A stretch of 64,000 bases of DNA from Fidelibacterota bacterium (GTDB lineage: Bacteria > Fidelibacterota > UBA2242). The position numbers and the translations under genes are program-made. Positions within the stretch are counted from its first letter, which is position 1. Every line of letters starts with the position of its first letter. The notes under the pieces are model-generated. The model saw only the letters and a list, made by a program, of their open reading frames with translations, searched no databases and was not told the DNA's origin. The stretch lies in NCBI GenBank assembly GCA_049975265.1, contig JBNGDF010000008.1:32001-96000 (forward strand), in the 5' to 3' direction. Of the stretch, positions 9,396 to 54,886 are shown in pieces.

Positions 9396-10142
9396 ATGAC
9401 AGCCCTCTTCCGGAAAATTGGCAACTCGCAAACCTTAAGTCAGGAAATCGTTGCGAAGATCGAGGCGGTTATCCGGCAAAAAAAGGTTCTCCCCGCTGAA
9501 AAATTGCCGACCGAGAAGGAGCTGTGCCACATGTTCGGGGTCAGCCGGACCGCCTTGCGGGAAGCGCTGCAGATGCTCAGTGCCCGGGGGCTGATCAGCA
9601 TTCGAAAGGGTAGCGGGATTTATGTCAACGACTATTCCTCAATGCATGTGATTGAGCCGATGAACCTCTTTCTTGAATTGAAGCTGGACCGTGATTATAT
9701 CCTGTATGTCATGGAGGTTCGCAAGATGTTCGAGCCGACGATCGCCCGGCTGGCGGCGCTTAACAGGAACGCCGATGATCTGCGCAAACTTGCCCTGAAT
9801 CTGCAGAAGCTGCAGCAGTCTCCGCCGGAGGATTATATCAAACAGGGACAGATTGATCGGGATTTTCATCTGATCATTGCCAATGCCTGCCGGAACCCGA
9901 TCATACCGCTCATGGTGACACCGATTTTTCAACTGATGCCGAAAATCCGTTCGCTGGTGTATGCCAATGTGACATCTGCCCAGGATGAAGCGATCGATTA
10001 TCATCAGAGAATTGCATTGAAAATCCGTGACCGGGACCCGGAAGGCGCCTATCAGGCGATGGTGGCGCATCTGCAACGCGCCGAAAGTCATTCGAAAGAG
10101 ATATTATCCGCAGCTGATTTAAAATTACAGGAGCTATCGTGA
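9396..10142 (+). CDS. GntR/FadR-family transcriptional regulator
   Basis: LPTEKELCHMFGVSRTALREAL wHTH, FCD domain (DRDFH, ACRN, YHQRI, MVAHL). Confidence 0.95.
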   Translation: MTALFRKIGNSQTLSQEIVAKIEAVIRQKKVLPAEKLPTEKELCHMFGVSRTALREALQMLSARGLISIRKGSGIYVNDYSSMHVIEPMNLFLELKLDRDYILYVMEVRKMFEPTIARLAALNRNADDLRKLALNLQKLQQSPPEDYIKQGQIDRDFHLIIANACRNPIIPLMVTPIFQLMPKIRSLVYANVTSAQDEAIDYHQRIALKIRDRDPEGAYQAMVAHLQRAESHSKEILSAADLKLQELS

Positions 10143-10789
10143 AACGGGCAATCATTCAGGAAACATTGGAACGGTCGGGTATCATGGCAGTGATTCGACT
10201 GAGGAATGCCGATAAGCTGACCGAGATAATCGACGCCCTGATCAACGGAGGAATTCGGGCGTTGGAAATCACCATGACGACACCGAATGCGGTTGAGATT
10301 ATCCGTGACACCAGTCAAAATCTCTCTGCGGATTTTATTATAGGGGCGGGAACGGTTCTCAACGCGGAAGCGGCGGAGGCGGTCATCCAGGCGGGTGCTC
10401 AGTTTGTGGTCAGCCCGGTATTCAAACCGGAAATCATCTCAGTGGCGCATAAGCATGACAAAGTCGCCATTCCCGGTGCCTTCAGTGCGACGGAAATCCT
10501 GGTTGCCTGGGAGAGCGGCGCCGATATGGTAAAGGTTTTCCCGGCGACCGTTCTAGGACCGCGCTATTTCAAGGATATACACGGACCTCTGCCGCAGGTA
10601 AAATTGACACCCACCGGCGGCGTATCGCTGAGCAATGCCGAAGAGTTTATCCGTTGCGGGGCGGTCTGTCTGGGGGTGGGCAGTGCCTTGCTGGATAAGG
10701 ATCTCATCTGGGGTCAGAATTGGGCGGCTTTGACGGAAAAAGCCCGTCAGTTCAGGGCGGCGGTAGAGAAAGGAAGAGCGCTAAAATGA
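10139..10789 (+). CDS. eda: KDPG/KHG aldolase
   Basis: EITMTTP, GAGTVL, FVVSP, KVFPA, PTGGV. Confidence 0.95.
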   Translation: MKRAIIQETLERSGIMAVIRLRNADKLTEIIDALINGGIRALEITMTTPNAVEIIRDTSQNLSADFIIGAGTVLNAEAAEAVIQAGAQFVVSPVFKPEIISVAHKHDKVAIPGAFSATEILVAWESGADMVKVFPATVLGPRYFKDIHGPLPQVKLTPTGGVSLSNAEEFIRCGAVCLGVGSALLDKDLIWGQNWAALTEKARQFRAAVEKGRALK

Positions 10790-10814
10790 ATTTATTGAAA
10801 TGGAGATGGTCCCA

Positions 10815-11840
10815 ATGATTCCCAGGATTGTAACCTTTGGAGAGATCATGCTGCGCCTGGCGCCTGATGATTATGAGCGGATCATCCAGACGAATCGGTT
10901 TCAGGCAACCTACGGCGGAGGTGAAGCCAATGTAGCGGTATCGCTGGCACAGCTGGGCGACGAGTGTTGGTTTGTGACCCGTCTGCCGGAGAATGCTCTC
11001 GGCGATGCGGCAATCCAGACGCTGTCTGGCTATGGTGTCCGGGTTGACCACATTATACGCGGCGGTCAGCGGATCGGTATCTACTTTCTGGAGCAGGGTG
11101 CCTCGCTGCGTCCGTCCAGGGTGATCTACGACCGCGCCGGATCGGCGATAACGGAAATCAAGACCGGGAGCCTGGAATGGTCAGCGATTTTTAAGGGGAA
11201 GGACTGGTTTCATATTACCGGAATCACGCCGGCGATTTCGAAGTCGGCAGCCGCCGTCAGTCTGGAGGCAGTCAGGACGGCGAAGCATGCCGGTCTGAGA
11301 GTCAGTTGTGACCTGAATTATCGCAGGAAGCTCTGGACCCGCGTTGAGGCGCAGGCAGTTATGGCGGAATTGGTTCGGTATACCGATCTGATCATTGCCA
11401 ATGAAGAGGATGCCGCTGACGTATTTGGAATCCGCGCCGGTGCCGGTGATGTAAAAGCGGGGAAGTTGGATAGTGCCCAGTATCGGGATGTTGCAGAACA
11501 GCTGGCGGCTTTGTCGGGTGCCGGAAAAGTCGCCATAACTCTGCGGGAAAGTCTCTCGGCGTCGGATAACAACTGGTCGGCGCTGCTGTTTGATGGTGAA
11601 AATTTTTATGAGAGTCGCAAATATGCGATTCACATAGTCGATCGGGTTGGCGGCGGCGATTCTTTTGGTGCCGGTCTGATTCACGGTCTGCTCAGGGGTT
11701 GGGAGATGCAGACCGCGCTGGAGTTTGCCGTTGCGGCATCCGCGCTGAAACAGACCATTCCCGGAGATATGAATCTGGTCAAAGAAGATGAAGTTATGGC
11801 TGTCGTGAAGGGTGATGTTTCGGGGCGGGTTCAGCGCTGA
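10815..11840 (+). CDS. kdgK: 2-keto-3-deoxygluconate kinase (PfkB family)
   Basis: FGEIMLRL, GGGEANVA, TGITPA, DLNYRRKLW, DRVGGGDSF; start chosen after GGAG RBS. Confidence 0.92.
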   Translation: MIPRIVTFGEIMLRLAPDDYERIIQTNRFQATYGGGEANVAVSLAQLGDECWFVTRLPENALGDAAIQTLSGYGVRVDHIIRGGQRIGIYFLEQGASLRPSRVIYDRAGSAITEIKTGSLEWSAIFKGKDWFHITGITPAISKSAAAVSLEAVRTAKHAGLRVSCDLNYRRKLWTRVEAQAVMAELVRYTDLIIANEEDAADVFGIRAGAGDVKAGKLDSAQYRDVAEQLAALSGAGKVAITLRESLSASDNNWSALLFDGENFYESRKYAIHIVDRVGGGDSFGAGLIHGLLRGWEMQTALEFAVAASALKQTIPGDMNLVKEDEVMAVVKGDVSGRVQR

Positions 11841-11903
11841 AATATCGCATCCGGCAGCTGTCGCCGGCTGAATGATTTTGGAAAACATGAAAAAGGAGTT
11901 GTT

Positions 11904-13151
11904 ATGAAATTGTCCAGGTATTCGATGGGTGTTGGGGACCGCTTTGGTCGGGAAGGGGTTGCCCAGTTAGCCGCGATGTTCAAAGCCAGTGAACAGGGTA
12001 TTCCGATAACACCTGTTTGGAATAAATCGTTTCGCGAACATCAGATCATTGGTAGTACACCGGCGGACACCCGTCGGGCGGCGGATGAAGCGGTGCGCTC
12101 TGCGGGATGGCAGGCGGCTTACTTTGTGGATGGCGACCATATCGATCTGAAAACGGTGGACGATTTTATGCAATCCAGCGATTTTTTTACCATGGATGTC
12201 GCCGACGAAATCGGCAAGCCGGTGGAAGATGCAAAATTGCGGGAGTATATGCAGTTTTGTGAGCGGTTTCACCGGTCGTTTGAAATTCCCGGGATTGCGG
12301 AGAAGCTCGACGTCAGCCCCGAGATGGTTCGTCAGATTGCGCAACAGTATCTGGCGGGTATTCTGGAGGCAGAAAAAATCTACCGGCATATCGCAGAACG
12401 GGTAAAGAAGCCCTTTGTGCTGGAGTTGTCCATCGATGAAACAGAGCAGCCGCAGCGTCCGGTGGAGCTTTTCTTTATTCTGGCGGGTGCCGCCTGGTGC
12501 CGTCTGCCGCTGGATACGATCGCGCCGAAGTTCAGCGGTCGTTTCAATAAGGGGGTCGATTATGTGGGTGATGCCGCCCGGTTTGCCCGGGAATTTGAGG
12601 AGGACATTCTGGTGGTCAAATTTGCCGTACAGGAATTTGGATTGCCGGCATCGTTGAAACTGAGCGTCCATTCCGGCAGCGATAAATTTACCCTTTATCC
12701 GATTATTCGGAAAATTTTGCATAAACAGAACGCCGGAGTTCACCTGAAGACGGCGGGTACCACCTGGCTCGAAGAGCTGATTGGTATCGCTGCCGCTGGT
12801 GGCGCCGGTCTGGATCTGGCGAAATCGATCTATTCCGATGCCTATGACCGCCAGGCGGAGCTGGTAAAACCCTATGCTCCGGTGCTGGATATTCACCCCA
12901 AACGTCTGCCCTCTCCGGCGGATGTCCGGACCTGGAGCAGTGCTGAATTCGTTGGTGCATTGCGGCATGTTCAGACGGAAAAACGGTATAATCCCGACTT
13001 TCGCCAGCTCCTGCACGTAGCATATAAAATTGCCGCCGAGCGGTGCACAGAATTCGACCGGGCGCTCCAGCATTATGTCGATTTTATCGCTCCCAACGTG
13101 ACCGAAAACCTCTTTGAACGCCATATCAAGCCGCTGTTTTTAGAGGAATAA
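11904..13151 (+). CDS. uxaE: Tagaturonate/fructuronate epimerase
   Basis: GVGDRFG, DGDHI, ELSIDET, GRFNKGVDY, SVHSGSDKF, HLKTAGTTWLE. Confidence 0.9.
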   Translation: MKLSRYSMGVGDRFGREGVAQLAAMFKASEQGIPITPVWNKSFREHQIIGSTPADTRRAADEAVRSAGWQAAYFVDGDHIDLKTVDDFMQSSDFFTMDVADEIGKPVEDAKLREYMQFCERFHRSFEIPGIAEKLDVSPEMVRQIAQQYLAGILEAEKIYRHIAERVKKPFVLELSIDETEQPQRPVELFFILAGAAWCRLPLDTIAPKFSGRFNKGVDYVGDAARFAREFEEDILVVKFAVQEFGLPASLKLSVHSGSDKFTLYPIIRKILHKQNAGVHLKTAGTTWLEELIGIAAAGGAGLDLAKSIYSDAYDRQAELVKPYAPVLDIHPKRLPSPADVRTWSSAEFVGALRHVQTEKRYNPDFRQLLHVAYKIAAERCTEFDRALQHYVDFIAPNVTENLFERHIKPLFLEE

Positions 13152-23951: not shown

Positions 23952-23996
23952 CAAAGGAAAGAACATGACCGCCAATCATAAAGATATGGAGAGTTC

Positions 23997-26174: not shown

Positions 26175-26194
26175 TGTGCAAAGGAGAAGAATCA

Positions 26195-27211
26195 ATGCGA
26201 CTCAATAAAATGACCGGATATGTACTGATTTTACTCTTTGTGTCTTTTACGCTGACGGATGCCCAGGTGGGTCTGAAAAAGGTGGCGCAGAGCACTATGA
26301 ATTTTCAGCTGGTCAGCGTCTCGCCGCGTGCCAGCGCGCTGGGTGAAGCCTTCATTACCCTGGGCACCGGTGCCGAGAGTATCTTTTTCAATCCCGCCGG
26401 AATCGCCGAATCTGAAAATCGTCTGGATGTCAAACTGTACATGACCCACTGGATTGCGGATATTGATTACTTAGCCGGTGCGCTCAGCTGGAATCTGGGA
26501 ACTTACGGTACAGTGGGACTGAGCGCTCTGAGTGTGGATTACGGTACCATCTACGGGACGAGTCTGGTATCCGGTACTGAGATGGTACACTATCCGGCTG
26601 GCTACCGGGATTTGGGAACGGTCAGCAATGTCGGTGCCTATTCGGTGGGTGTCTCTTATGGAAAAGCCGTCAGCACGCAGTTTTTTATCGGCGGCAATGT
26701 TCGTCTGGCAGGTCAGAATCTCGGACAGAGCTATCTGGAATCCGGACGGAAGGACAATAACGCCACCAGACTGGTTTTCGACGCCGGCGTGAAATATTAT
26801 ACCGGTCTGCGCAGTTTTCGCTTTGGAATGGCGATCCGCAATTTTTCTTCCAATATCAAGCGGGAACGGATTTACGAGCAGCTGCCGCTGATCTTTATCA
26901 TGGGTGCCGCTATTGATCTGTTTGAAATGGTGTCACCGGGTGGGGAACGAAACAGCAACCTGACATTGGCGGTGGATTTTTTACATCCCAATAATTACTC
27001 CGAGCGGATGAATATCGGACTCGAATATCTGGCTTTCGGAAGGCTGGCATTAAGAGCCGGGTATCAGACCAACCAGGATGTGGCTTCCTGGTCGGCGGGC
27101 TTGGGGGTCAATGCCAACCTCGCCGGCAGGACGGTGGCGTTTGACTATTCCTATTCCAATTTTGATATCTTTGATGGGGTCAATCGCCTCTCAATCGGAT
27201 TTAATTTTTAA
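26195..27211 (+). CDS. PorV/PorQ-family outer-membrane beta-barrel
   Basis: PRASALGEAF...SIFFNPAGI N-terminal signature, amphipathic strands, LRAGY, FDYSY, terminal SIGFNF; AAGGAG RBS. Confidence 0.88.
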   Translation: MRLNKMTGYVLILLFVSFTLTDAQVGLKKVAQSTMNFQLVSVSPRASALGEAFITLGTGAESIFFNPAGIAESENRLDVKLYMTHWIADIDYLAGALSWNLGTYGTVGLSALSVDYGTIYGTSLVSGTEMVHYPAGYRDLGTVSNVGAYSVGVSYGKAVSTQFFIGGNVRLAGQNLGQSYLESGRKDNNATRLVFDAGVKYYTGLRSFRFGMAIRNFSSNIKRERIYEQLPLIFIMGAAIDLFEMVSPGGERNSNLTLAVDFLHPNNYSERMNIGLEYLAFGRLALRAGYQTNQDVASWSAGLGVNANLAGRTVAFDYSYSNFDIFDGVNRLSIGFNF

Positions 27212-42495: not shown

Positions 42496-43326
42496 ATGAA
42501 GGTACGATATTTAGCAGACCCGCAACGTTTTCCCCGCATGACGACAAAGGAGCTGCGGGAGACCTTTCTGGTGGAGAATCTTTTTCAAGCAGGCAAACTG
42601 GAAATGCTCTACAGCGACACAGAGCGGGCAGTAGTGGCGGGTGTCGTTCCCACTGTTGAACCGCTGGAGCTGCCCGGAGGGAAAGAGCTGGCGAGTGATT
42701 ATTTTGCACAGCGCCGGGAAGCAGGGGTAATCAATATCGGCGCAACGGGAACGGTGACGGTTGACGGTGAATCATATCATTTGTCAAAGCTCGATTGTCT
42801 CTACATCGGTCGCGGTGCGAAGCAGATACACTTTATGAGTGACGACTCGAAAAATCCGGCGGAATTTTACCTGCTCAGTTATCCGGCGCACCGCGATTAT
42901 CCGACGAAACTGATTCACAAAGCGGAAGCGAATCAGGTGGCGCTGGGAGGGCTGAAAACATCGAATGAGCGGATTATCTATCAATACATTCGCCCCGGCG
43001 TGGCGGAGAGCTGTCAACTGGTGATGGGTTTGACATTGCTTGCTGAGGGCAGTGTCTGGAATACCTTCCCGCCGCATACCCATGCCCGACGGACTGAGAT
43101 TTACCTCTATTTTGGTCTCGGTGCGGATGAGCGTGTCTTTCACATGATGGGTTTGCCGTCAGAGACACGGCATCTGGTGATGAGAAACAGGGAGGCGGTG
43201 CTGTCACCCAGCTGGTCAATTCACGCCGGCGCCGGTTCCGGCAATTACGGTTTTATCTGGGGCATGGGGGGTGAAAATCAGGAGTTTGACGATATGGATC
43301 ATGTCAACATTGACGAAATCCGATAG
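42496..43326 (+). CDS. kduI: 5-dehydro-4-deoxy-D-glucuronate isomerase
   Basis: RREAGVINIG, SCQLVMGLT, WNTFPPHTHARRTE, SPSWSIHAG, MGGENQEFDDMD. Confidence 0.96.
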   Translation: MKVRYLADPQRFPRMTTKELRETFLVENLFQAGKLEMLYSDTERAVVAGVVPTVEPLELPGGKELASDYFAQRREAGVINIGATGTVTVDGESYHLSKLDCLYIGRGAKQIHFMSDDSKNPAEFYLLSYPAHRDYPTKLIHKAEANQVALGGLKTSNERIIYQYIRPGVAESCQLVMGLTLLAEGSVWNTFPPHTHARRTEIYLYFGLGADERVFHMMGLPSETRHLVMRNREAVLSPSWSIHAGAGSGNYGFIWGMGGENQEFDDMDHVNIDEIR

Positions 43327-43344: not shown

Positions 43345-44340
43345 ATGATCATTGAAGAACGTGCCTATGCCCGCGCCGGATTACTGGGTAATCCCTCGGA
43401 CGGCTATTTCGGGAAGACCATCTCCGTAATTGTCCGCAATTTCGGGGCGCATATCCAGCTCTGGGAGTCGCCGTCGCTCTGCATCCAGGCAGCCGTCAGT
43501 GAAGCGCCGCGGTACCGGAACCTGAACGAGCTGTTGGAGCAGACGACCGCCTTAGGCTACTATGGTGGCGAGCGCCTGATCAAGGCGGCGATTGTCACCT
43601 TTGCCGAATATTGCCGGGAGCAGGACATTGCCCTGGAGAATAAAAATTTCACCCTGCAGTTTCATTCCAGTATCCCGCGGCAGGTAGGACTGGCTGGCTC
43701 CAGTGCTATTGTGACGGCGACCATGAAGGCGCTGCTGCGCTTTTTCAATGTCCGTATTCCGAAAGCCTTTCTGCCGACGCTTATACTGCGGGCGGAGACG
43801 GAGCAGCTGGGCATTAATGCCGGGCTGCAGGACCGGGTGGTTCAGGTCTACGAAGGCTGCGTCTATATGGATTTTAACCGGGAGCAGATGAAAAAAAAAC
43901 AGCATGGCATCTATCAGAAAATCGATGTCGAAAAACTGCCCAGGCTGTACATCGCTTACAAGACCCGTCTAAGCAAAGTATCCGGAAAGGTACTGAATAT
44001 CATCCGACTTAAGTATGAACAGAAAGACCCGGCGGTTCTGAGGGCTCTGGATGAGATCGCCGGTCTGGCGGAAGCCGGTCGTGCGGCGCTTGAATCGGGT
44101 CGGACGGAGGAGCTCTTTGAGCTGCTGAACCGGAATTTCGATCTGCGGCGTTCGATTATGCCGATCAATGCATCCAATCTGGAACTGGTGGAGACGGCAC
44201 GGGCATGTGGTGCTTCGGCAAAATTCGCCGGTTCCGGCGGATCCATTATTGGAACGTACAGGGATGACGCCATGCTGAACCGGCTGATTTTGGGGCTGAA
44301 GCGAATTGATGCGCGGGTCATTAAACCGTTTATTCTATAG
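43345..44340 (+). CDS. GHMP kinase resembling plant glucuronokinase
   Basis: ARAGLLGNPSDGYFGKTIS, GYYGG, IPRQVGLAGSSA, AGLQDRVVQVYEG, KFAGSGG. Confidence 0.88.
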   Translation: MIIEERAYARAGLLGNPSDGYFGKTISVIVRNFGAHIQLWESPSLCIQAAVSEAPRYRNLNELLEQTTALGYYGGERLIKAAIVTFAEYCREQDIALENKNFTLQFHSSIPRQVGLAGSSAIVTATMKALLRFFNVRIPKAFLPTLILRAETEQLGINAGLQDRVVQVYEGCVYMDFNREQMKKKQHGIYQKIDVEKLPRLYIAYKTRLSKVSGKVLNIIRLKYEQKDPAVLRALDEIAGLAEAGRAALESGRTEELFELLNRNFDLRRSIMPINASNLELVETARACGASAKFAGSGGSIIGTYRDDAMLNRLILGLKRIDARVIKPFIL

Positions 44341-44352
44341 GAGAAGATAAAC

Positions 44353-45234
44353 ATGGTTCGGAAAGCAGTTATACCGGCGGCGGGATTGGGCACCCGGTTT
44401 TTACCGGTCACCAAAGCGCAACCCAAGGAGATGTTGCCGATCATTGATACACCGACGATCCAGTATGTGGTTCAGGAGGCGATAGATGCCGGCATTGAGG
44501 ATATTCTGATTATTTCAGGAAAAGGAAAACGGGCGATTGAGGATCATTTTGATCGCAGCCCGGAGCTGGAATTATTGTTAAATCAGAAGGGCAAGACGGA
44601 GCAATTTTACGAGGTCAGTCGTCTGGGTGAAATGGCGAATATTCACTTCATCCGGCAGAAGGAGCTGAAGGGGCTCGGCGATGCCATCTCCTATGCCCGT
44701 CAGCACACCGGTGATGAACCCTTTGTAGTGATGCTGGGCGACACGATTATCGATTCGGTTATTCCCGTTACCCAGCAGCTGATTGATGTCTACAACCAGT
44801 TTTGTCAAAGTGTGATTGCCGTGGAGGAGGTGGCGCCGGAAAAGGTTGGTCGTTACGGAATTATCGCCGGTAAGGCAATTGACGAGCGCACCTATCAGCT
44901 GACCGGCATTGTGGAGAAGCCGAAGCCCGCCGACAGCCCTTCTAATCTGGCGGTAGCGGGGCGCTACATTCTGACGCCGGAGGTGTATTCGATTCTGGAT
45001 GACCTGCCACCCGGTGTCAATGATGAGATTCAGCTCACCGATGCCTTGCAAATTCTGTTGAAACGGGAGAACATCTACGCTTATCGCTTTGAGGGACGGC
45101 GCCATGATATCGGCAACAAGCTGGATTATCTGAAAACCACGGTGGAATACGCCTTGAAACGGGCGGAATTCGACGAACCATTTATGGAATTTTTAAAAGC
45201 AGTCGTAGCCAGGGAGAAAAATGATGAATCCTGA
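44353..45234 (+). CDS. galU: UTP-glucose-1-phosphate uridylyltransferase family
   Basis: KAVIPAAGLGTRFLPVTKAQPKEMLP, GLGDA, VEKP, EIQLTDA. Confidence 0.94.
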   Translation: MVRKAVIPAAGLGTRFLPVTKAQPKEMLPIIDTPTIQYVVQEAIDAGIEDILIISGKGKRAIEDHFDRSPELELLLNQKGKTEQFYEVSRLGEMANIHFIRQKELKGLGDAISYARQHTGDEPFVVMLGDTIIDSVIPVTQQLIDVYNQFCQSVIAVEEVAPEKVGRYGIIAGKAIDERTYQLTGIVEKPKPADSPSNLAVAGRYILTPEVYSILDDLPPGVNDEIQLTDALQILLKRENIYAYRFEGRRHDIGNKLDYLKTTVEYALKRAEFDEPFMEFLKAVVAREKNDES

Positions 45235-46624
45235 TCGTTTTTTTGATGCCGATGAAAATGTTCGCAAAATTGCACGTGAGTTGTATGCCGAGGTGAGAGA
45301 CCTGCCGCTGATCAGCCCGCACGGTCATGTGGACCCGAAACTGTTTGCCGGGAATCAACCCTTTCCGGACCCGGCAGAGCTCTTTATTATCCCCGATCAT
45401 TATATCTTCCGAATGCTCTATTCGCAAGGTATTGCGCTGGAGTCACTGGGGATTCCGCGACGGGATGGATCGGTGGACGAGACCGACCGGCGCAAGGTCT
45501 GGCGGATTTTTGCGGAAAATTATTATCTCTTTGCCGGAACCCCCAGCGGCATCTGGCTGAATCATGAACTGCGTGAGCTGTTTGGTATTCAGGAAAAGCT
45601 CAACGGTACGAATGCCGATGACATATTCGATCGGATTCAGGCGAAATTAGCGACGCCGGAGTATCTGCCCCGGGCGCTGTACGACCGCTTCAATCTGGAG
45701 GTGCTGACTACCACGGACAATCCCTGGGATTCGCTGAGTTATCACCGGCAGATCAAAGATTCCGATTGGGACGGAGAAATCGTACCCTGTTTCCGACCGG
45801 ACGGCGTGACCGATATCAGTCGGGAGGACTGGCAGGCTAATATCGAGAAACTATCCAAAGCCAGCGGAATCTGGATTACCAGTTACCGGCAGCTGATCCG
45901 GGCGCTGGAGGATCGGCGCGCCTTTTTCAAGTCTATGGGGGCGGTCTCCACGGATCACGGTGTTAAGGAGGCACTGACGCTGCGCCTTTCCGATGAAGAA
46001 GCCGACCGCATTTTTCAGAAGGCGCTGAAGGGAAATGTTTCTGTCGACGATGCGCGGATCTTTACAGCGCATATGCTGATGGAGATGGCGCGGATGAGCT
46101 GCGATGACGGATTGATCATGCATCTGCATGCCGGGGCATTGCGCAATCACAACGAACGGATTTTTAAGAAATTCGGTCCCGATAAGGGCGCCGACATACC
46201 GATCGCTTCGGAATTTACGGTGAATCTGAAACCGTTACTGAATGCTTACGGCAGTGAACGTAATTTTCACCTGATTCTCTTTACTCTTGATGAATCCACC
46301 TATTCCCGGGAACTGGCGCCGCTGGCGGGGCATTATCCGGCGCTGCGACTGGGTCCAGCCTGGTGGTTTCACGACAGCGTTCAGGGGATGATTCGATTTC
46401 GGGAACGGACACTGGAGACCGCCGGCGTCTACAATATGATCGGATTTATTGATGATACCCGGGCGTTTCCCTCCATTCCTGCCCGTCACGATCTGGCGCG
46501 CCGTATCGACAGTAACTATCTGGCGGGTCTGGTGGCGAAGCATATTATCGATATGGCGGATGCCCAAAAAATGAATTATGCCCTGGCATACGGACTCTCC
46601 AGGGAAATGTATCGTAAACAATGA
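45221..46624 (+). CDS. uxaC: Uronate isomerase
   Basis: ISPHGHVD, PDHYIFRMLYSQG, STDHG, RELAPLAGHYP, WWFHDS, DDTRAF.SIPARHD. Confidence 0.96.
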   Translation: MMNPDRFFDADENVRKIARELYAEVRDLPLISPHGHVDPKLFAGNQPFPDPAELFIIPDHYIFRMLYSQGIALESLGIPRRDGSVDETDRRKVWRIFAENYYLFAGTPSGIWLNHELRELFGIQEKLNGTNADDIFDRIQAKLATPEYLPRALYDRFNLEVLTTTDNPWDSLSYHRQIKDSDWDGEIVPCFRPDGVTDISREDWQANIEKLSKASGIWITSYRQLIRALEDRRAFFKSMGAVSTDHGVKEALTLRLSDEEADRIFQKALKGNVSVDDARIFTAHMLMEMARMSCDDGLIMHLHAGALRNHNERIFKKFGPDKGADIPIASEFTVNLKPLLNAYGSERNFHLILFTLDESTYSRELAPLAGHYPALRLGPAWWFHDSVQGMIRFRERTLETAGVYNMIGFIDDTRAFPSIPARHDLARRIDSNYLAGLVAKHIIDMADAQKMNYALAYGLSREMYRKQ

Positions 46625-46652: not shown

Positions 46653-47651
46653 ATGAAAAAGTATTTTTTACCTGGCTTTGTTCTTGGGTTGATGCTGATC
46701 CTGCTGCCTGCCTGCAGCCGGGACAGCCGCACAAAGGTAATCAAACTCGGACATGCGCTGAATGCCGATCATCCGGTCCATAAGGCAATGGTCTTCATGG
46801 CTGACCGGGTAAAAGAGAAATCCGACGGTCGGTTGCGCATTGATATCTATCCCAGTCAGCAATTGGGTACCGAGCGGGAGCTGGTGGAGCTGTTGCAAAT
46901 CGGCAGCCTGGGAATTACCAAGGTCTCGTCGGGTGTTATTGAGGGCTTTGTGCCGGTTCACAAAGTATTCGGTTTGCCCTATCTGTTTCGGGATGAAGAG
47001 CACCGCTTTTGCGTGCTGGAGGGTGAAGTCGGAAAGCAGATTTTACTGAGCAGTGAGCAGTACTGGCTGCGGGGGCTCTGCTATTATGACGCCGGCAGCC
47101 GCAGTTTTTATTCCAAAGACAAACCGATATTAACACCTGCTGATTTAGCCGGTTTGAAGGTGCGTACCATGAACAGCCCCACGGCGGTGGCGATGATCCA
47201 GCAGATGGGCGGCTCGGCGACACCGATCGCCTGGGGCGAGCTGTACACGGCATTGCAGCAGGGGGTCGTGGATGCAGCGGAGAACAATCCCCCTTCCTAT
47301 CACCTGTCGCGGCATTACGAAGTATGCAAACATTACTCTCTGGATGAACATACCTCCGTACCGGATGTGCTGCTGATCAGTACAATTATCTGGAACGACC
47401 TGACGCCGCAGGAGCAGCAGTGGCTGCAGGAGGCGGCGGATGAATCGGCACAGTATCAGAAGCAGCTCTGGAAGGAGGCTTGTGAATTTGCCCTTCAGGA
47501 GGTTCAGAAAAGTGGGGTAAAAGTCTACTATCCCGACAAGAGAGCATTTGCCGAAAAGGTAGCGCCTATTTATGAACGTTACCGTGATCAGCCGGAGCTC
47601 TATGAATTAATTCAAAAAATAAGGACGGAGAGTGATGGGAAACCGAATTAA
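46653..47651 (+). CDS. dctP: TRAP transporter substrate-binding lipoprotein
   Basis: Lipobox LPAC, QLGTERE, GLKVRTM, ELYTALQQGVVDAAENN. Confidence 0.94.
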   Translation: MKKYFLPGFVLGLMLILLPACSRDSRTKVIKLGHALNADHPVHKAMVFMADRVKEKSDGRLRIDIYPSQQLGTERELVELLQIGSLGITKVSSGVIEGFVPVHKVFGLPYLFRDEEHRFCVLEGEVGKQILLSSEQYWLRGLCYYDAGSRSFYSKDKPILTPADLAGLKVRTMNSPTAVAMIQQMGGSATPIAWGELYTALQQGVVDAAENNPPSYHLSRHYEVCKHYSLDEHTSVPDVLLISTIIWNDLTPQEQQWLQEAADESAQYQKQLWKEACEFALQEVQKSGVKVYYPDKRAFAEKVAPIYERYRDQPELYELIQKIRTESDGKPN

Positions 47652-48153
47652 AATATTTGTTGACCGCTGGTTAAGCCGGATTTTGATCGGTTTGATGGCG
47701 TTCAGCGTGTTGAATGTCCTCTGGCAGGTGTTGACGCGGTTTATCCTGAAGCATCCCAGCTCCTATACGGAAGAGCTGGCGCGGTTTTTACTGATCTGGG
47801 TCGGTATGCTTGGCGCCGCTTGGGCGTCCGGTCAGAAAATGCACCTGGCGATTGATTATTTTACCCTGAAGATGAAACCCGATCTGCAAAGGTTTGTTGG
47901 GCTTTTTATTCAGGTTGTGGTATTTCTGTTTGCTTTATTTGTAATGGTAATCGGCGGGCTGCGCCTAGTGACCATTACGCTCGCTCTCAATCAGACCTCG
48001 GCGGCACTGCAGATCAAACTGGGATATGTCTATGCGGTCGTACCGATCAGCGGGGTACTCATCATGTTTTACGCCGTGATGCTCTTCAGCGACTATTTGC
48101 GCGGCGGTGTCCAGGCTATAGCAGGAGCGGAGGGTAATGATGGCAGCAATTGA
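47635..48153 (+). CDS. dctQ: TRAP transporter small permease
   Basis: QVLTRF, YTEELAR, HLAID, 4 TM helices. Confidence 0.92.
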   Translation: MGNRIKIFVDRWLSRILIGLMAFSVLNVLWQVLTRFILKHPSSYTEELARFLLIWVGMLGAAWASGQKMHLAIDYFTLKMKPDLQRFVGLFIQVVVFLFALFVMVIGGLRLVTITLALNQTSAALQIKLGYVYAVVPISGVLIMFYAVMLFSDYLRGGVQAIAGAEGNDGSN

Positions 48154-49438
48154 CATTTTGGTACTGGCGGGTGTATTTGTTTTTCTCCTTGTTATCGGCA
48201 CACCAATTTCCTTCAGCATCGGTGTCGCCACGATCTGCACCATGCTGCTGAGCATTCATTCGCTGCCGGCGCTGACCACGGTGGCTCAGCGCATGGCGAC
48301 GGGACTGGACAGTTTTGCGCTGCTGGCGATTCCCTTCTTTGTCCTGTCGGGGCAATTGATGAATCACGGGGGCATTGCCCGGCGTCTGATCAATTTTGCC
48401 AAGGTCCTGGTGGGGCGTCTGCCGGGAGGTCTGGCTTTTGTGAACATCATTGCGGCGATGTTTTTCGGAGCAATTTCCGGTTCGGCGGCGGCAGCGGCGG
48501 CGGCGATCGGCGGTTTTATGGTTCCGATGATGAAAAAAGAGGGCTATGATGAAAATTTCAGTGCGGCGGTGAATATCACCAGCTCTACCACGGGGCTGAT
48601 CATTCCTCCCAGTAATATCCTGATCGTTTACTCACTGGCAAGCGGCGGTGTATCCATTGCGGCTCTCTTCGTTGCGGGGTATCTGCCCGGAATATTGGTG
48701 GGGCTGACGCTGATGGTAGTAGCCGGGTTGATTTCCAAAAAACGCAATTACCCGACGGTGCCCAGGATCGGATTGCTGCAGGCGGTGAAATATTTTCTCG
48801 CTGCAATTCCGAGTCTGCTGTTGATTGTGATTGTCATCGGCGGAATTATCGCCGGATTCTTTACAGCCACCGAGGCCTCGGCGATTGCCGTGCTTTATAC
48901 CTTTGTGCTGTCGGTCCTGATTTATAAGGAGGTGAAGTGGAAACAGATACCGTCAATTTTGCTCTCTACGGTGGGGACGACGGCGATTGTGATGTTGCTG
49001 ATCGGTACCTCCATGAGCATGTCCTGGATTATGTCTTACGAAAATATTCCCCAGAATATCAGCGCGGCGCTGATTGCATTGACCGACAGTAAAATTATTA
49101 TTTTATTGATTATCAATTTGATTCTTCTGCTGGTGGGAACCTTTATGGATATGACGCCGGCGGTGCTGATTTTTACGCCGATATTCCTGCCGGTGGTTAC
49201 ACAGCTGGGCATTCATCCGATCCATTTCGGCATTATGATGGTGCTGAATCTCTGTGTGGGGCTCTGTACCCCGCCGGTGGGATCGGTGCTGTTTATCGGC
49301 TGCGGGATTGCCAATTGCCGGATCGACAAGGTGATTCGACCGCTTCTGCCGCTCTTTCTGGCGATGTTTATTGCGCTGATGTTGATCACCTATATACCGG
49401 AGATCACGATGCTGATACCGCGGGCGTTGGGATATTAA
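48137..49438 (+). CDS. dctM: TRAP transporter large permease
   Basis: LLAIPFF, FGAISGSA, IIPPS, TATEA, HFGI, TPPVG. Confidence 0.95.
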   Translation: MMAAIDILVLAGVFVFLLVIGTPISFSIGVATICTMLLSIHSLPALTTVAQRMATGLDSFALLAIPFFVLSGQLMNHGGIARRLINFAKVLVGRLPGGLAFVNIIAAMFFGAISGSAAAAAAAIGGFMVPMMKKEGYDENFSAAVNITSSTTGLIIPPSNILIVYSLASGGVSIAALFVAGYLPGILVGLTLMVVAGLISKKRNYPTVPRIGLLQAVKYFLAAIPSLLLIVIVIGGIIAGFFTATEASAIAVLYTFVLSVLIYKEVKWKQIPSILLSTVGTTAIVMLLIGTSMSMSWIMSYENIPQNISAALIALTDSKIIILLIINLILLLVGTFMDMTPAVLIFTPIFLPVVTQLGIHPIHFGIMMVLNLCVGLCTPPVGSVLFIGCGIANCRIDKVIRPLLPLFLAMFIALMLITYIPEITMLIPRALGY

Positions 49439-49473: not shown

Positions 49474-50292
49474 ATGAGTCAGAAAATTACTGAAAGATAT
49501 AATTTTCAAAATAAATGTGCCGTCGTCACCGGCGGTGCGGGGGTGCTGGGCTCCGGTTTTACAAAGGCGCTGCTGGATTGCGGCGCCAATGTGGCGATTC
49601 TGGATTTGAATGCGGATAAAAGCGACGGCTATGGCGAATACGGTGATCGCTTTTTGCCGCTCAAAACCAACGTTCTAGAGAAGGACTCGGTCCAGGCGGC
49701 GGTCAATGATGTAGTGAAGCATTTTGGAGCGGTGGATTTGCTGGTTAATGCGGCGGGCGGCAATCATCCCGATGCCAGCAGCAGCGCTGAGGTTCCTTTT
49801 TTTGATCTGCCTGCCGAGGCGTTAAAGTTCGTGACCGATCTGAACCTGCTGGGTACGATTTTGCCGAGCCAGGTGGTAGGGAAACTCATGGCAGAGCATC
49901 AGCAGGGAGTAATTCTGAACGTTTCTTCCATGAGCGCTTTTCGTCCATTGACCCGGGTGGTCGGCTATTCGGCGGCGAAAGCGGCGGTGAGCAATTTTAC
50001 CCAGTGGCTGGCGGTCTATATGGCGCAGGAGTACTCGCCGAATATCCGGGTGAATGCCCTTGCCCCGGGCTTTTTCCTGACTAAACAGAATGAGTTTTTG
50101 CTGGTTGATAAAGAGACCGGGAAATTGACCGGGCGGGGTCAAAAGATCATTGATCATACACCGATGAGGCGATTCGGGAATCCGGAGGACCTGCTGGGGG
50201 CGCTGCTCTGGCTGTTGTCTGAGGATTCGCAGTTCGTGACCGGAATCGTGCTGCCGATTGACGGCGGTTTTTCCGCATATTGTGGTGTTTAA
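49474..50292 (+). CDS. uxuB: SDR-family D-mannonate oxidoreductase (fructuronate reductase)-like
   Basis: TGGAGVLG, NAAGGNHP, RPLTRVVGYSAAK, APGFFLTKQN, DGGFSAY; substrate inferred from subfamily motifs and context. Confidence 0.8.
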   Translation: MSQKITERYNFQNKCAVVTGGAGVLGSGFTKALLDCGANVAILDLNADKSDGYGEYGDRFLPLKTNVLEKDSVQAAVNDVVKHFGAVDLLVNAAGGNHPDASSSAEVPFFDLPAEALKFVTDLNLLGTILPSQVVGKLMAEHQQGVILNVSSMSAFRPLTRVVGYSAAKAAVSNFTQWLAVYMAQEYSPNIRVNALAPGFFLTKQNEFLLVDKETGKLTGRGQKIIDHTPMRRFGNPEDLLGALLWLLSEDSQFVTGIVLPIDGGFSAYCGV

Positions 50293-50306
50293 CGGAGTAA
50301 AGGAGG

Positions 50307-51770
50307 ATGGATACCGTGAAGCAGTGTCATATTGGTTTAATCGGACTGGCGGTCATGGGTGAAAACCTGGTGCTCAATATGGAGCGTAACGGCTTTTCCG
50401 TAGCGGTTTTCAACCGGACCGTGAGCAAAGTCGATAGATTTTTGGCAGACCGGGCGAAAGGCAGGAATATCGTCGGGTGCCACAGCATTGAGGAGCTGGT
50501 GGCGAATCTCGAACGTCCCCGGGAAATTATGCTGCTGGTGAAAGCCGGCAAACCGGTGGATGATTTTATTGAAAAGTTGCTGCCGCACCTGGAAAAAGGC
50601 GACATCATTATCGACGGCGGCAACAGTTACTTCTCCGATACGATTCGGCGAACAAAATATGTAGAGAGCAAGGGCTTGCTGTACATCGGGACCGGTGTTT
50701 CCGGTGGTGAAGAGGGTGCCTTAAACGGACCTTCCATTATGCCGGGCGGGTCGCCGGCTGCCTGGTCGCATGTGAAGCCGATTTTCCAGAAAATCGCGGC
50801 GAAAGTAGCCGACGGATCACCCTGCTGCGAATGGGTCGGCGACAATGGCGCCGGGCATTTTGTGAAAATGGTGCATAACGGGATTGAATATGGTGATATG
50901 CAAATGATCAGCGAATCTTACTGGATCATGAAAAATGCCCTCGGTTTGACCTATGATGAGATGCAGGCGATTTTCGAAAAGTGGAACCAGGGAGAACTGA
51001 ACAGTTACCTGATTGAGATCACAGCTGCGATCATGGGCAAAAAGGACCCGGAGACTGGTAAACCGATGCTGGAAGTCATTATGGATCGAGCCGGTCAGAA
51101 GGGCACCGGACGCTGGACCAGCCTGGAGGCGTTGAATCTGGGCGTACCGGCTCCGACGGTGGTGGAGGCGGTGCTGGCGCGGGCGATGAGCGCCATAAAG
51201 GAAGAGCGCGTTGCCGCGGCTCAGGTATTGAGCGGACCACGGATGAAATTTAGTGCTGAAAAGAACGCATTTATCGAGAAGATTCGGCGGGCGCTGTATG
51301 CCTCGAAAATCTGCTCCTATGCGCAGGGATATCAGCTGATGAGAGCGGCGGCTGAGGAGTACAAATGGGACCTGAAGTATGGTGAAATCGCTCTGATGTG
51401 GCGGGGCGGCTGCATTATCCGGGCGCAGTTTCTGGGGCGCATCAAGGAGGCTTATGATAAGAATCCTGGCTTGCAGAATCTGTTGCTGGATGATTATTTC
51501 AAAGCCGCCATCGATGAAAACCAGGCTGCCTGGCGGGAGGTCATTGCCCAGGCGGTAGCGCTGGGTATTCCGGTACCGGCGTTCAGCAGTGCGCTGGCGT
51601 ATTATGACGGTTACCGCAGCGAACGACTTCCGGCAAATCTCCTGCAGGCACAGCGCGACTATTTTGGTGCTCATACGTATGAGCGGGTGGACAAGCCGCG
51701 GGGTGAATTTTTTCACACCGACTGGACCGGTCACGGCGGCAAGACCGCATCGACAACCTATAACGTGTAA
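50307..51770 (+). CDS. gndA: 6-phosphogluconate dehydrogenase (decarboxylating, NADP)
   Basis: [50 protein letters not shown]. Confidence 0.97.
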
Positions 51771-51786
51771 CACTACAGGAGGAATA

Positions 51787-52554
51787 ATGTCCGGAATACT
51801 GGATAAATTTCGGCTGGACGGTAAGGTGGCGATCGTCACCGGCGCCAGCCGCGGACTGGGGCAGGGAATCGCCATCGGTCTGGCGGAGGCGGGCGCCGAT
51901 CTTGCGCTGGTGGATATCCTGGAAATGGAAAATACAAAAAAAGCCATCGAAGAAACCGGCAGAGACGCCGTTTCAATTCACGCCGATCTGTCTTCCATTG
52001 ACAGTGTAAAATCCATCGTGGAAAAAACGGTGGCGGAATTTGGGAAAATTGATATTCTGGTGAACAATGCTGGCATCATCCGACGGGCGCCGCTGGTGGA
52101 GTTTACCGAAAAGGATTGGGATGATGTCATTAACATTAATCAGAAAACCCTGTTTTTCCTGAGTCAGGCGGTGGCAAGGGTGATGATTGCAAAGGGCAAC
52201 GGCGGGAAAATCATCAATACCGCCTCGATGCTCTCCTTTCAGGGCGGCATTCGGGTCCCCTCTTATACCGCTTCAAAAAGCGCCGTCATGGGATTGACCC
52301 GCCTGATGGCGAACGAGCTGGCGCCCTACGGAATCAATGTGAATGCCATTGCCCCCGGCTATATGGCGACGGACAATACGGCGCCGCTACGTGCCGATGC
52401 GACGCGCAGCCGGGAAATTCTCAGTCGTATTCCGGCGGGACGCTGGGGTACCCCGGAAGACCTGCAGGGTGTGGCGGTTTTTCTGGCGTCAGCCGCTTCG
52501 GACTACATGCAGGGCTATACCGTGGCGGTTGACGGAGGCTGGTTGGCGAGGTAG
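51787..52554 (+). CDS. kduD: 2-dehydro-3-deoxy-D-gluconate 5-dehydrogenase
   Basis: ASMLSFQGGIRVPSYTASKS, NAIAPGYMATDNT, VDGGWLAR; AGGAGG RBS before ATG 51787. Confidence 0.95.
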   Translation: MSGILDKFRLDGKVAIVTGASRGLGQGIAIGLAEAGADLALVDILEMENTKKAIEETGRDAVSIHADLSSIDSVKSIVEKTVAEFGKIDILVNNAGIIRRAPLVEFTEKDWDDVININQKTLFFLSQAVARVMIAKGNGGKIINTASMLSFQGGIRVPSYTASKSAVMGLTRLMANELAPYGINVNAIAPGYMATDNTAPLRADATRSREILSRIPAGRWGTPEDLQGVAVFLASAASDYMQGYTVAVDGGWLAR

Positions 52555-52557
52555 GAG

Positions 52558-53778
52558 ATGTTGAACATACAGACAGTGCGTTCTATCATTACGAAAGCCT
52601 TCAATGACTGGCAGATTTACGGCAGGCGGGTGCTTTTTATTATTCCCGATAATTCCCGCACCGCACCAATTGATTGGATTTTCCGGATTATTTACGAGCA
52701 ATTGAGAGAACGCGCCGCGACGATTGACTTCCTGATTGCGTTGGGAACCCATCCGCCGCTAAGAGAGGAGCAGATTTACAAACGGGTTGGCATAACCCGG
52801 GAAGAGCGGCACCGGGATTTTTCCAAAGCCCGATTTTTTAACCACCACTGGAAAGATCCGCAGCAGCTGATGACGATCGGGATACTTGCCGCGGAAGATG
52901 TGGAAACACTCTCTGAAGGACGGCTGTCAGACTCCGTGCCGGTCACCATCAACCGTCTGATTCAGCATTACGAAATGCTGGTGGTGATTGGTCCGGTTTT
53001 TCCCCATGAGGTGGTGGGCTTTTCGGGTGGGAATAAATACTTTTTCCCGGGTATTTCCGGTCCCGAAATCATTGATCTGTTTCATTGGCTGGGGGCGCTG
53101 ATTACTAACCAGAAAATCATCGGTATCAAGCATACGCCGGTGCGGGCGGTGGTGGATGCTGCCGCACAGTTGATCCCGGCGGAACGCCGCTGTTTTGCTT
53201 TAGTAATGAAGCAGGACGGTCTCAGCGGAATGTTCGCCGGTACACCCGAGGAAGCCTGGTCCCGGGCGGCGGACCTGTCGGCGCAGGAGAATATTGTGTA
53301 TGTGGATGCTCCGTTTCAAACGGTTCTGTCCCGGGCACCGGAGATGTACGAGGACCTTTGGACCGGCGGGAAGTGCATGTACAAACTGGAACCGGTGGTG
53401 GCTGACGGCGGTGAATTGATCATCTATGCACCGCATATTCGCGAAGTATCGGTCACACATGGTGAGATTATCCGGCAGGTGGGCTATCATGTCCGGGATT
53501 TTTTTACCGGGCAGTGGGAAAAATACCGCCGCTTTTCCGGTGGTATCCTGGCGCACTGTACCCATGTCAAGGGTGCGGGTGAATATGTAGATGGCGTTGA
53601 AAAACCGCGGATCAAGGTAACCCTCGCTACAGGAATTTCGAAACAAATCTGTCACACCATCAATCTCGGATACTGCGATCCGCAATCAATCCGGATAGCG
53701 GATTTTCAGAATCGGGAGAAAGACGGGATTTTGTATGTGCCGAAAGCGGGGGAAAGGCTGTATCGATTAATAAAATGA
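52558..53778 (+). CDS. LarA-family (nickel-pincer-dependent) hydroxyacid racemase/epimerase
   Basis: PDNSRT, IALGTH, FPHEVVGFSGGNKYFFPG, LFHW correspond to the LarA D..R, His, His/Lys and His motifs. Confidence 0.85.
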   Translation: MLNIQTVRSIITKAFNDWQIYGRRVLFIIPDNSRTAPIDWIFRIIYEQLRERAATIDFLIALGTHPPLREEQIYKRVGITREERHRDFSKARFFNHHWKDPQQLMTIGILAAEDVETLSEGRLSDSVPVTINRLIQHYEMLVVIGPVFPHEVVGFSGGNKYFFPGISGPEIIDLFHWLGALITNQKIIGIKHTPVRAVVDAAAQLIPAERRCFALVMKQDGLSGMFAGTPEEAWSRAADLSAQENIVYVDAPFQTVLSRAPEMYEDLWTGGKCMYKLEPVVADGGELIIYAPHIREVSVTHGEIIRQVGYHVRDFFTGQWEKYRRFSGGILAHCTHVKGAGEYVDGVEKPRIKVTLATGISKQICHTINLGYCDPQSIRIADFQNREKDGILYVPKAGERLYRLIK

Positions 53779-53806
53779 ATATGAAAATAATAAACCGGAG
53801 ATAACG

Positions 53807-54886
53807 ATGAGTATTACACTTCGAAATGAATGTAGATGGTCACTGATCGTGCCGACCAGTATGGGCGTGCGGATTACACCGGTGGACCAGCAACCGGTCC
53901 AATCGGGCAATCTTTTTATAATGCAGGCGACGAGTGCTGAATCCAACGTCGCGAGCATCTCATCCTATCTGGGCTTGCCGGTGAAGGTTCTAACCGCGTT
54001 TGTGGCGGGGAGCCCGATTGCGAAATTTATCAAGAGTAATCTGAGAAGTCGCATGATGGAGTTTGAAGGACCGGATGTTCCGCAGGGCGGACCCTGGGGA
54101 TTCCGTCACCAATTCAATATCGCCGACAGCGGGTGCGGCTCCCGCGGACCCCGGGTACACAACGACCGCGCCGGGGAAGTCGGCAGGACGCTGAATGCGA
54201 AGGATTTCGATCTGGAAAGGATTTTTGCAAAAGAAGGTGCCCAAATTATTCATCTGTCCGGCTTGATCGCTGCTCTATCGCCGGAAACCGGGCAATTCTG
54301 TCTCGAATTGGCAAGAATGGCGAAAAAACATGACTGCCGGATCAGTTTCGATCTGAATTACCGCGCTTCGTTCTGGAAAAATCGTGAAAGTGATCTTGGG
54401 GAAATTTTCAGTGAAATTGCCGGAATTTCCGATATTTTAGTTGGCAATGAAGAGGATTTTCAACTCTGTCTGGGCATTGCCGGTCCGGAAGCGGGTGGCA
54501 AAGACCTGGCGGGGAAAATTGACGGCTTCAAAGAGATGATCGGGCGGGTTAAAAAAACCTATACCAATGCGACCGTCTTTGCCACGACATTGCGTGAAGT
54601 GGTGGATGCCAACCATCATCTTTGGGGTGCCATTATGCTGGAAGGCGATAACTGGCATGTCGTTGAACCGCGACCGATTACTGTGCTGGACCGGATTGGC
54701 GGTGGCGACGGTTTTGTTGGCGGACTATTATACGGAATTCTGAAAGGCTGGGCACCGGAGAAGTGGATGCAGTTTGGATGGGCAACCGGCGTACTGGCGA
54801 CGACGATGCTGACCGACTACACCCAGCCGGCTGACGAAGAACAGGTCTGGAGTATCTGGGAAGGTAATGCCCGTGTGAAACGGTGA
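53807..54886 (+). CDS. Second PfkB-family sugar-acid kinase (KdgK-like, divergent)
   Basis: SFDLNYRASFW, GNEEDFQ, DRIGGGDGF; atypical N-terminus PTSMGVR/TSAESNVA. Confidence 0.88.
   Translation: MSITLRNECRWSLIVPTSMGVRITPVDQQPVQSGNLFIMQATSAESNVASISSYLGLPVKVLTAFVAGSPIAKFIKSNLRSRMMEFEGPDVPQGGPWGFRHQFNIADSGCGSRGPRVHNDRAGEVGRTLNAKDFDLERIFAKEGAQIIHLSGLIAALSPETGQFCLELARMAKKHDCRISFDLNYRASFWKNRESDLGEIFSEIAGISDILVGNEEDFQLCLGIAGPEAGGKDLAGKIDGFKEMIGRVKKTYTNATVFATTLREVVDANHHLWGAIMLEGDNWHVVEPRPITVLDRIGGGDGFVGGLLYGILKGWAPEKWMQFGWATGVLATTMLTDYTQPADEEQVWSIWEGNARVKR

Follow-up and report, generated by a model that had tools for sequence, protein, structure and literature searches.

How does a bacterium equipped to degrade pectin dispose of the D-mannonate that its uronate pathway would yield, when neither a mannonate nor an altronate dehydratase is found in its genome, and where would the enzyme that appears to take over this step obtain its cofactor? 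These questions are raised by a stretch of 64,000 nucleotides (hereafter the window) from a Fidelibacterota bacterium, corresponding to positions 32001-96000 of contig C8 in a genome (G000) of 2.86 Mb in 66 contigs, which is 95.3% complete and contains N gaps. Between positions 45221 and 54886 of the window, on the + strand, genes for UxaC, a tripartite ATP-independent periplasmic (TRAP) transporter, an UxuB-type short-chain dehydrogenase/reductase (SDR), Gnd, KduD, a homologue of LarA and a PfkB kinase (the 53807 kinase, named after its first position) follow each other with spacings of 3-35 bases or small overlaps. From uxuB to the kinase gene, these spacings are 14, 16, 3 and 28 bases, and each gene is preceded by a purine-rich ribosome-binding site.

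An original prediction, made from the letters of the window, proposed that the LarA homologue converts D-mannonate into D-gluconate, which would be phosphorylated by the 53807 kinase and delivered to Gnd. The gene placement on which it relied (uxuB, gnd, the LarA homologue, the PfkB kinase, uxaC and uxaE), the co-orientation and the tight spacing are borne out by profile matches and coordinates (Table 1). The passage from mannonate through gluconate to 6-phosphogluconate is already known and is not new; what the window adds is a candidate PfkB kinase in this route and, mainly, an enzyme of the nickel-pincer nucleotide (NPN) type that is under selection in a lineage without recognisable NPN synthesis.

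Search for a dehydratase exit from D-mannonate

Searches of the whole genome returned no match to UxuA, to UxaA (GD_AH) or to UxaB (mannitol dehydrogenase family), with control matches in 5/14, 5/14 and 7/14 reference genomes, respectively. Other candidates for a sugar-acid dehydratase were rejected: the enolase-superfamily matches are a dipeptide-epimerase-like protein and two proteins that we take, by eye, to be enolase and an IspG-like protein, and the single IlvD/Edd match is a true IlvD. Neither the mannonate dehydratase of the canonical UxuA route nor the altronate dehydratase of the UxaB/UxaA branch (Ashwell route) was found in this genome. The original prediction had noted the lack of uxuA, uxaA and uxaB in the locus, and this extends to the entire genome, where a co-regulated uxuA was likewise not found.

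Family, active site and fold of the LarA homologue

The sequence signature places the LarA homologue in group 19 (GntE1-like), among the hexonate epimerases and not the lactate racemases. Its best match in the PDB is 4NAR, the GntE2 protein of Thermotoga maritima (E 4.5e-63, against 1e-6 for lactate racemases), and a structure model built from a 55-row alignment (predicted local distance difference test, pLDDT, of 95) superposes on 4NAR with a template-modelling (TM) score of 0.90. The top Foldseek matches of the model were 4NAR, 9EIA, 2YJG and 5HUQ, the Lar_N domain and the two-domain LarA fold being both present. The protein is 42% identical to a Corynebacterium homologue and falls below every NCBIfam LarA cut-off, its best score being that for group 18 (NF052594, 188 bits against a cut-off of 500); true group-18 members score 658-670 bits on this profile, and the window protein is thus not a member.

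The original prediction had described intact motifs, and all catalytic residues (D31, H96, H150 and K272, equivalent to D72, H108, H174 and K298 of the L. plantarum enzyme) as well as all NPN-binding residues (R34, K160 and H176, equivalent to R75, K184 and H200) are indeed present. The group-19 signature consists of E151 and V152 in the E-V loop, W268 in helix 11, and A332, H333, C334, T335 and H336 in helix 14, C334 standing in place of the usual S of the S/T-T-H motif; read by eye against the rows of Dataset S2 of PMC7583248, 13 of them from group 19, the protein agrees with this group. The same signature (D-R-H-H-E-V-K-H...W-T-x-K...A-H-x-T-H) and a uronate-linked context are given for GntE1/LarAH19 of Corynebacterium glutamicum, a group-19 enzyme (Desguin 2020, PMC7583248), and PMC11770544 names the same pocket residues, E, V, A and H, for gluconate epimerases. 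Mannonate/gluconate 2-epimerase activity is documented only for GntE1, GntE2, LarAH15 and LarAH10 (PMC7583248, PMC11770544), and by analogy with the assayed members of groups 19 and 20 the window protein would interconvert these two acids.

As its alternative, the original prediction had considered a lactate racemase that would work with the Etf-linked dehydrogenase encoded at 2-5 kb of the window. An etfB-etfA-glcD-like set is present there, and such a set is a typical neighbour of group-1 proteins (PMC7583248 Table S1); nevertheless, the LarA homologue reaches 72 bits on the lactate racemase profile NF033504 (cut-off 460), carries E-V and A-H where F-F and W-T/E/Q would be expected, and etfA/etfB occur in 0/80 of the epimerase-anchored loci described below. 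This explanation was rejected as extremely improbable.

The genome also encodes a second intact group-19 LarA homologue (C4:75731-76987; L001:1444-2691), 57% identical to that of the window, with no sugar genes around it. Its neighbours are a KaiC-like ATPase, a class I aldolase-like gene, peptide deformylase and P-loop/metal-handling genes, these names being assigned partly by eye, and a LarA-homologue paralogue in another genome (G057) lies near a similar KaiC-like gene.

Neighbourhoods of the epimerase and distribution of UxuA

The epimerase-anchored survey comprised 86 loci (20 from relatives and 66 from GTDB contigs), reduced to 80 after removal of 6 duplicates; many lie on short contigs, and the counts were tallied by hand from tables. 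Here gnd was found in 56/80 loci and uxuB (above 45% identity) in 39/80. At the genome level, 61 genomes of the phylum were compared, 30 of them belonging to the family of the window: the uxuB family is present in 26 (25 over the cut-off), a group-18/19 epimerase in 25, and both in 24. By comparison, uxuA occurs in 8/61 genomes, 5 of these among the 26 with uxuB. Four genomes combining epimerase and uxuA (G011, G014, G019 and G047) have two copies of uxuB each. One copy is beside uxuA; the other adjoins the epimerase in G011, G014 and G019 and lies at a distance of about 10 kb from it in G047.

The further carriers, 50 of the 66 GTDB loci (those excluded being the 6 duplicates and another 10, which were for the most part short or redundant), gave a similar picture, with no UxuA match in 42/50. 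Since nearly all genomes with uxuB carry the epimerase and few of them uxuA, and most of these further carriers lack UxuA, the epimerase appears to occupy the place of UxuA. Moreover, 17/61 genomes, including G000, have uxuB and the epimerase and lack uxuA as well as larB, larC and larE (larBCE). In six relatives of the same family (L151-L156; G011, G029, G020, G022, G016 and G024), a group-18 epimerase replaces that of group 19 in the same cluster. Order-level searches detected the epimerase in 21/35 genomes and larC in 2/35, these being the same genomes as in the set of relatives and hence not independent. Altogether, comparative support for a route from mannonate to gluconate is strong.

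The proposed kinase step

As the original prediction had recognised, the 53807 kinase is divergent, with 29% identity to the canonical KdgK encoded at 10800 and, in the alignment, T-S-A-E-S-N where KdgK has G-G-A-E-x-N. Among the best 80 of 593 metagenome loci anchored on this kinase, a LarA homologue was found in 33/80 (31 of group 18), uxuB in 29/80, gnd in 25/80 and uxuA in 1/80, and the LarA homologue rises to 19/36 in loci of at least 8 kb. The position beside eda expected of KdgK is uncommon (eda nearby in 6/80), and in two loci kdgK-eda and a kinase of the 53807 type stand side by side. The same type of kinase is found with both epimerase groups, whose similarity is only 30%, and this suggests a phosphorylation within their shared route. 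No GntK of the FGGY or shikimate-kinase type was found in the genome: the FGGY matches are GlpK, XylB and ribulokinase, and the single SKI match, a frame of 553 amino acids, reads as shikimate kinase. From this context, the 53807 kinase is a putative gluconate kinase.

The two steps might also take place in reverse order, the kinase making 6-phosphomannonate and the group-19 enzyme epimerising it to 6-phosphogluconate, with the same cofactor question. Both activities have been measured in extracts of Lactobacillus suebicus, with the genes unidentified in that report (PMC6978723); the high Michaelis constant (KM) of GntE1 for free mannonate would agree with this order, and the H-S-T-H residues of group 19, compared with H-V-I-N in group 20, could speculatively suit a phosphate. 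On the other hand, group-18 enzymes fill the group-19 slot within the same family, and an oomycete GntE acts well on free mannonate with a KM of 9.4 mM (PMC11770544); an oomycete row falls in group 18, to which LarAH15 would putatively belong. We regard the reversed order as quite unlikely.

Beside the epimerase, the kinase slot is held by PfkB in 32/80 loci and by a protein resembling pyrophosphate (PPi)-dependent phosphofructokinase (PFK; NF010675 above cut-off) in 20/80, never by both and by neither in 28. The PPi-PFK-like protein is accompanied by a HAD protein in 19/20 loci (among them L059, L060, L062, L067, L091, L092, L098, L110, L113 and L119), and is a candidate PPi-dependent sugar-acid kinase. 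Re-phosphorylation of an imported pincer nucleoside by the neighbouring kinase or HAD protein was considered and dropped, as both are equally frequent in loci with and without the lar genes (16/15 and 11/13). A PdxB-like 2-hydroxyacid dehydrogenase is also frequent in the cluster (L087, L091, L092, L093, L100, L106, L107, L112 and L121) and in 13/80 kinase loci; in the epimerase-anchored set it was found in 9 lar-positive loci and in no lar-less one.

Absence of larB, larC and larE

The NPN cofactor of LarA is built by the products of larB, larC and larE. No match to LarC, and none over the cut-off to LarE, was detected in G000, and its sole AIRC/LarB match is PurE. Profiles constructed from the LarB, LarC and LarE proteins of four or five relatives and run against 52,556 frames of at least 30 residues recovered at best PurE (34 bits) and a PP-loop protein (30 bits). 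A supply of NPN by LarB, LarE and LarC of the same cell is hence not apparent for the window genome. The search for these genes had been suggested along with the original prediction, and their absence extends to 30/30 genomes of the family: among the 61 genomes, larB, larC and larE co-occur in the same four (G030, G037, G047 and G057).

Could the genes merely be missing from the assemblies? G000 is incomplete and gapped, and larBCE form one operon in several lar-positive genomes. Yet a LarA homologue of some kind is present in 27 genomes, and in 23 of these none of the three genes was found, compared with 2.4 expected from incompleteness; the same holds for 12/16 of those at least 90% complete. 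Because kin are not independent, these counts are used rather than test probabilities. Among the further carriers, larC is missing from 17/50, and none of these 17 has larB or larE, both of which are present in 5/5 positive checks; two of the 17 are single-record genomes (G088 and G100, the latter with N runs). An assembly gap is therefore highly improbable in our judgement. For six lar-positive genomes, the listed counterparts of the genes flanking larBCE are spread over different contigs of G000, which offers no single syntenic site for a deletion scar. In two other genomes (G062:C1:2996852-2997535 and G064:C24:19648-20331), beside full larB and larE, the LarC matches cover only profile positions 3-229, as in a split or shortened larC.

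In a comparison restricted to rows aligned over at least 340 residues and with a larC test, K160, H176, H96, H150 and K272 are kept in 34/34 lar-less and 34/34 lar-positive rows, and D31 and R34 in 33/34 of each, the two exceptions being frames without N-terminus. No residue at the active-site positions is specific to lar-less proteins, the best column difference (28/34 against 10/34) lying away from this set. On a quick tree of LarA homologues, the lar-less/lar-positive label changes at least 8 times. The ratio of nonsynonymous to synonymous substitution (dN/dS) of the epimerase is 0.07-0.12 in six lar-less pairs, compared with 0.04-0.13 for neighbouring genes and 0.15 in one lar-positive pair; synonymous distances were saturated in one more lar-less pair, and several pairs were left out.

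These data bear on another explanation, according to which lar-less cells have an epimerase that is inactive or serves another function, and mannonate either is consumed by a dehydratase that escaped recognition or has no exit. In its favour, no cofactor source was found. Conversely, the frame is intact, the active site invariant and dN/dS about 0.1 across saturated synonymous distances, the epimerase is strictly paired with uxuB and gnd, and the genome offers no candidate dehydratase, all of which makes this explanation very unlikely. The original prediction was held to fail if larBCE were absent and the enzyme inactive: the first half applies, whereas the invariant residues and the dN/dS values suggest, at the level of sequence, that the enzyme is not dead.

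Besides groups 19 and 18, lar-less genomes carry malate-racemase-like LarA homologues (L157, L159 and L160 in G008, G031 and G025; L158 and L162 in G032 and G034), which adjoin two malate-dehydrogenase-like genes or stand between ackA-like and pta-like genes.

Further features of the window

Table 1. Coordinates, strands and supporting matches of the features discussed, as positions of the window.
Feature	Position	Strand	Evidence
uxuB-type SDR, fructuronate reductase / D-mannonate oxidoreductase, product D-mannonate	49474..50292	+	NF006132, 346 bits (cut-off 281)
gnd, decarboxylating NADP-dependent 6-phosphogluconate dehydrogenase	50307..51770	+	TIGR00873, 773 bits (cut-off 427)
kduD, 2-dehydro-3-deoxy-D-gluconate 5-dehydrogenase, unsaturated-uronate branch	51787..52554	+	TIGR01832, 404 bits (cut-off 339)
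LarA homologue, group 19 (GntE1-like), predicted mannonate/gluconate 2-epimerase	52558..53778	+	Pfam Lar_N PF09861, 81 bits
KdgK-clade PfkB kinase, candidate gluconate (or mannonate) kinase	53807..54886	+	best PDB match 2AFB, E 9e-31
uxaC, uronate isomerase	45221..46624	+	NF002794, 544 bits (cut-off 387)
TRAP transporter dctPQM, likely uronate uptake	46653..49438	+	adjoins cluster in 14-16/70 loci
kduI	42496..43326	+	NF002091, 411 bits
eda, kdgK, uxaE (tagaturonate epimerase): 2-keto-3-deoxygluconate (KDG) branch and galacturonate entry	10139..13151	+	TIGR01182, 206 bits; NF041633, kinase part, 534 bits; Pfam UxaE, 176 bits
GHMP kinase and GalU-like nucleotidyltransferase	43345-45234		paired in four other loci
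TonB-dependent receptor, unannotated 725-aa protein, PorV-family protein	20637-27211		among secreted pectinases
Corrinoid protein and MtaA/CmuA-like methyltransferase	6533-8250	-	close to pectin locus

The gnd gene is the sole copy detected in the genome (a single blastp match), and kduD, whose start (an ATG with a ribosome-binding site) was taken from the printed sequence, is placed between gnd and the LarA homologue. The uxaE gene lies at 11904. Genes for pectate lyases, GH28, GH88 and pectinesterase, as well as kduI, lie upstream of the cluster. A scan for promoters and terminators yielded 22 and 20 sites, where shuffled sequence had 13.8 and 15.4, and showed no clear operon boundary. Elsewhere, the genome encodes transketolase and the large subunit of a [NiFe]-hydrogenase, and because of the latter it is taken to handle nickel.

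Directly upstream of uxaC, the GHMP kinase and GalU-like genes are possibly a glucuronokinase/UDP-sugar salvage pair. The TonB-dependent receptor region, whose secreted pectinases bear C-terminal domains of type IX secretion system (T9SS) kind, is a polysaccharide-utilisation locus outside Bacteroidota. Speculatively, the corrinoid protein and its methyltransferase might take the methyl groups freed by pectinesterase.

Discussion

In the proposed route, pectin-derived hexuronates would be converted into D-mannonate via UxaC, UxaE and UxuB, and the LarA homologue would invert C2 to give D-gluconate, which the 53807 kinase would phosphorylate and Gnd would decarboxylate, as 6-phosphogluconate, to ribulose 5-phosphate. 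The unsaturated uronate derived from lyases would be processed separately through KduI, KduD, KdgK and Eda. A hexuronate route ending in ribulose 5-phosphate and CO2 is redox-neutral. The family, the active-site signature and the neighbourhood support the route as originally predicted; the synthesis of NPN by the cell itself, which that prediction implied, finds no counterpart in the genome or in the family.

A route of this kind was proposed for Thermotoga by Rodionova 2012, as cited in PMC6978723, and its epimerase, GntE, was shown in 2020 (PMC7583248). Uronate isomerase, tagaturonate epimerase, fructuronate reductase, GntE and Gnd are all represented in the window genome, and the T. maritima branch from UxaE through fructuronate reductase, GntE2 and GntK to Gnd has the same predicted chemistry and epimerase fold. 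The systems differ in that the window epimerase is of group 19, with about 30% identity to the group-20 enzyme of T. maritima, in that a PfkB kinase takes the place of the FGGY-type kinase (COG1070) of Thermotoga, and in that control searches found uxuA and larBCE in T. maritima and neither in the window genome. As regards C. glutamicum, larB and larC were detected in the control searches and both are lacking here; for group 19 in general, PMC7583248 reports larB, larE and larC as neighbours in 33, 33 and 19%, and none was found in the window genome. The context with gnd and a PfkB kinase is that tabulated there for group 18, the group-18 neighbours in its Table S1 being an SDR, gnd, a ribokinase family member, uxaC and kduI, as in the window. 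Group 18 (NF052594, putative hexonate epimerase), whose members occupy the same cluster slot in the six relatives mentioned above, is about 30% identical to the window protein. The mannonate kinase/6-phosphomannonate 2-epimerase route of L. suebicus (Valk 2020, PMC6978723) likewise links UxaC, UxaE and UxuB to Gnd without a dehydratase; there, phosphorylation comes first, and the kinases are described as GntK-like.

Regarding the cofactor, the epimerase would need NPN from outside because larB, larC and larE were not found in the genome, and it would be loaded with NPN, or a late precursor, taken from other microbes. The passage through gluconate is probable as judged from gene families and context; granted this route, uptake stands at about an even chance and was reached by elimination, so that the combination of both, which we tentatively favour, falls somewhat short of even. 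Uptake is preferred because nothing in the protein suggests an altered pocket, because larB, larC and larE are lost or gained together, no fewer than 8 times on the quick tree, and because apo-enzymes take up free NPN in vitro, at about 1 uM (PMC7583248). Genomes in the opposite state, with larBCE and no larA, are discussed in PMC11796402 and PMC13524815. We found no statement on LarA homologues in genomes without larBCE in the literature searched, a scope that does not include the survey of Desguin 2014. B12-like sharing provides a precedent for the exchange of a cofactor between microbes.

Several observations weigh against this combination of gluconate route and acquired NPN. In G027 (91% complete), uxuB is present and both uxuA and the epimerase are missing, and T. 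maritima has both uxuA and GntE, which are hence not strict alternatives. For the sole assayed group-19 enzyme, GntE1, the KM with mannonate is 120 mM, and doubts about mannonate as the native substrate were voiced by the authors of the assay (PMC7583248). The 53807 kinase belongs to the KdgK clade, and 47/80 kinase loci have no LarA homologue within 5 kb. The lar-less genomes are all metagenome- or single-cell-type assemblies, from which larBCE, often a single operon, could be removed by a single gap. Among gene families present in at least 4 of 70 loci, no neighbour tracks the lar-less state, and no uptake system was found. Finally, NPN is phosphorylated and has been described as labile in holo-proteins (PMC11796402), which makes sharing harder.

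The lack of an uptake gene that follows the lar-less state speaks, at the same time, for an epimerase that serves the same sugar route independently of outside NPN, through an unrelated pincer synthesis or a simpler pyridinium nucleotide such as nicotinic acid mononucleotide (NaMN) or nicotinamide mononucleotide (NMN). This explanation would also account for the persistence of at least three LarA subfamilies (19, 18 and malate-racemase-like) in lar-less genomes, and dependence on neighbours would be risky in the 17/61 genomes where the epimerase is the only visible mannonate exit and larBCE are missing. Nonetheless, all LarA homologues assayed in PMC7583248 need NPN, no alignment column separates lar-less from lar-positive proteins, the label changes on the tree are better explained by synthesis genes that were repeatedly lost or gained than by a modified enzyme, and the relatives' profiles recovered only PurE and the weak PP-loop match; we consider it unlikely, though it is the strongest of the competing explanations.

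Coming back to the gluconate route with acquired NPN, the sugar chemistry would be a further example of known biology with one addition, the candidate PfkB-family gluconate kinase, and the cofactor gap is the part that specialists would not expect, although the survey of Desguin 2014 may list larA-only genomes, which would lower its novelty. If LarA homologues are active in lar-less cells, then NPN is exchanged between species in the manner of B12, or else it can be produced or substituted by some second means. The former would render NPN a shared, vitamin-like cofactor, such that whole families have dropped larBCE while keeping several NPN enzyme subfamilies under purifying selection, one of them as the sole exit for mannonate, and must import it; we hold this view with reserve, at rather less than an even chance. 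The latter, whether NPN is made by a pathway yet to be discovered or the LarA fold works with a cofactor lacking nickel, seems to us rather unlikely. Either of them, if true, would alter the interpretation of LarA genes in metagenomes.

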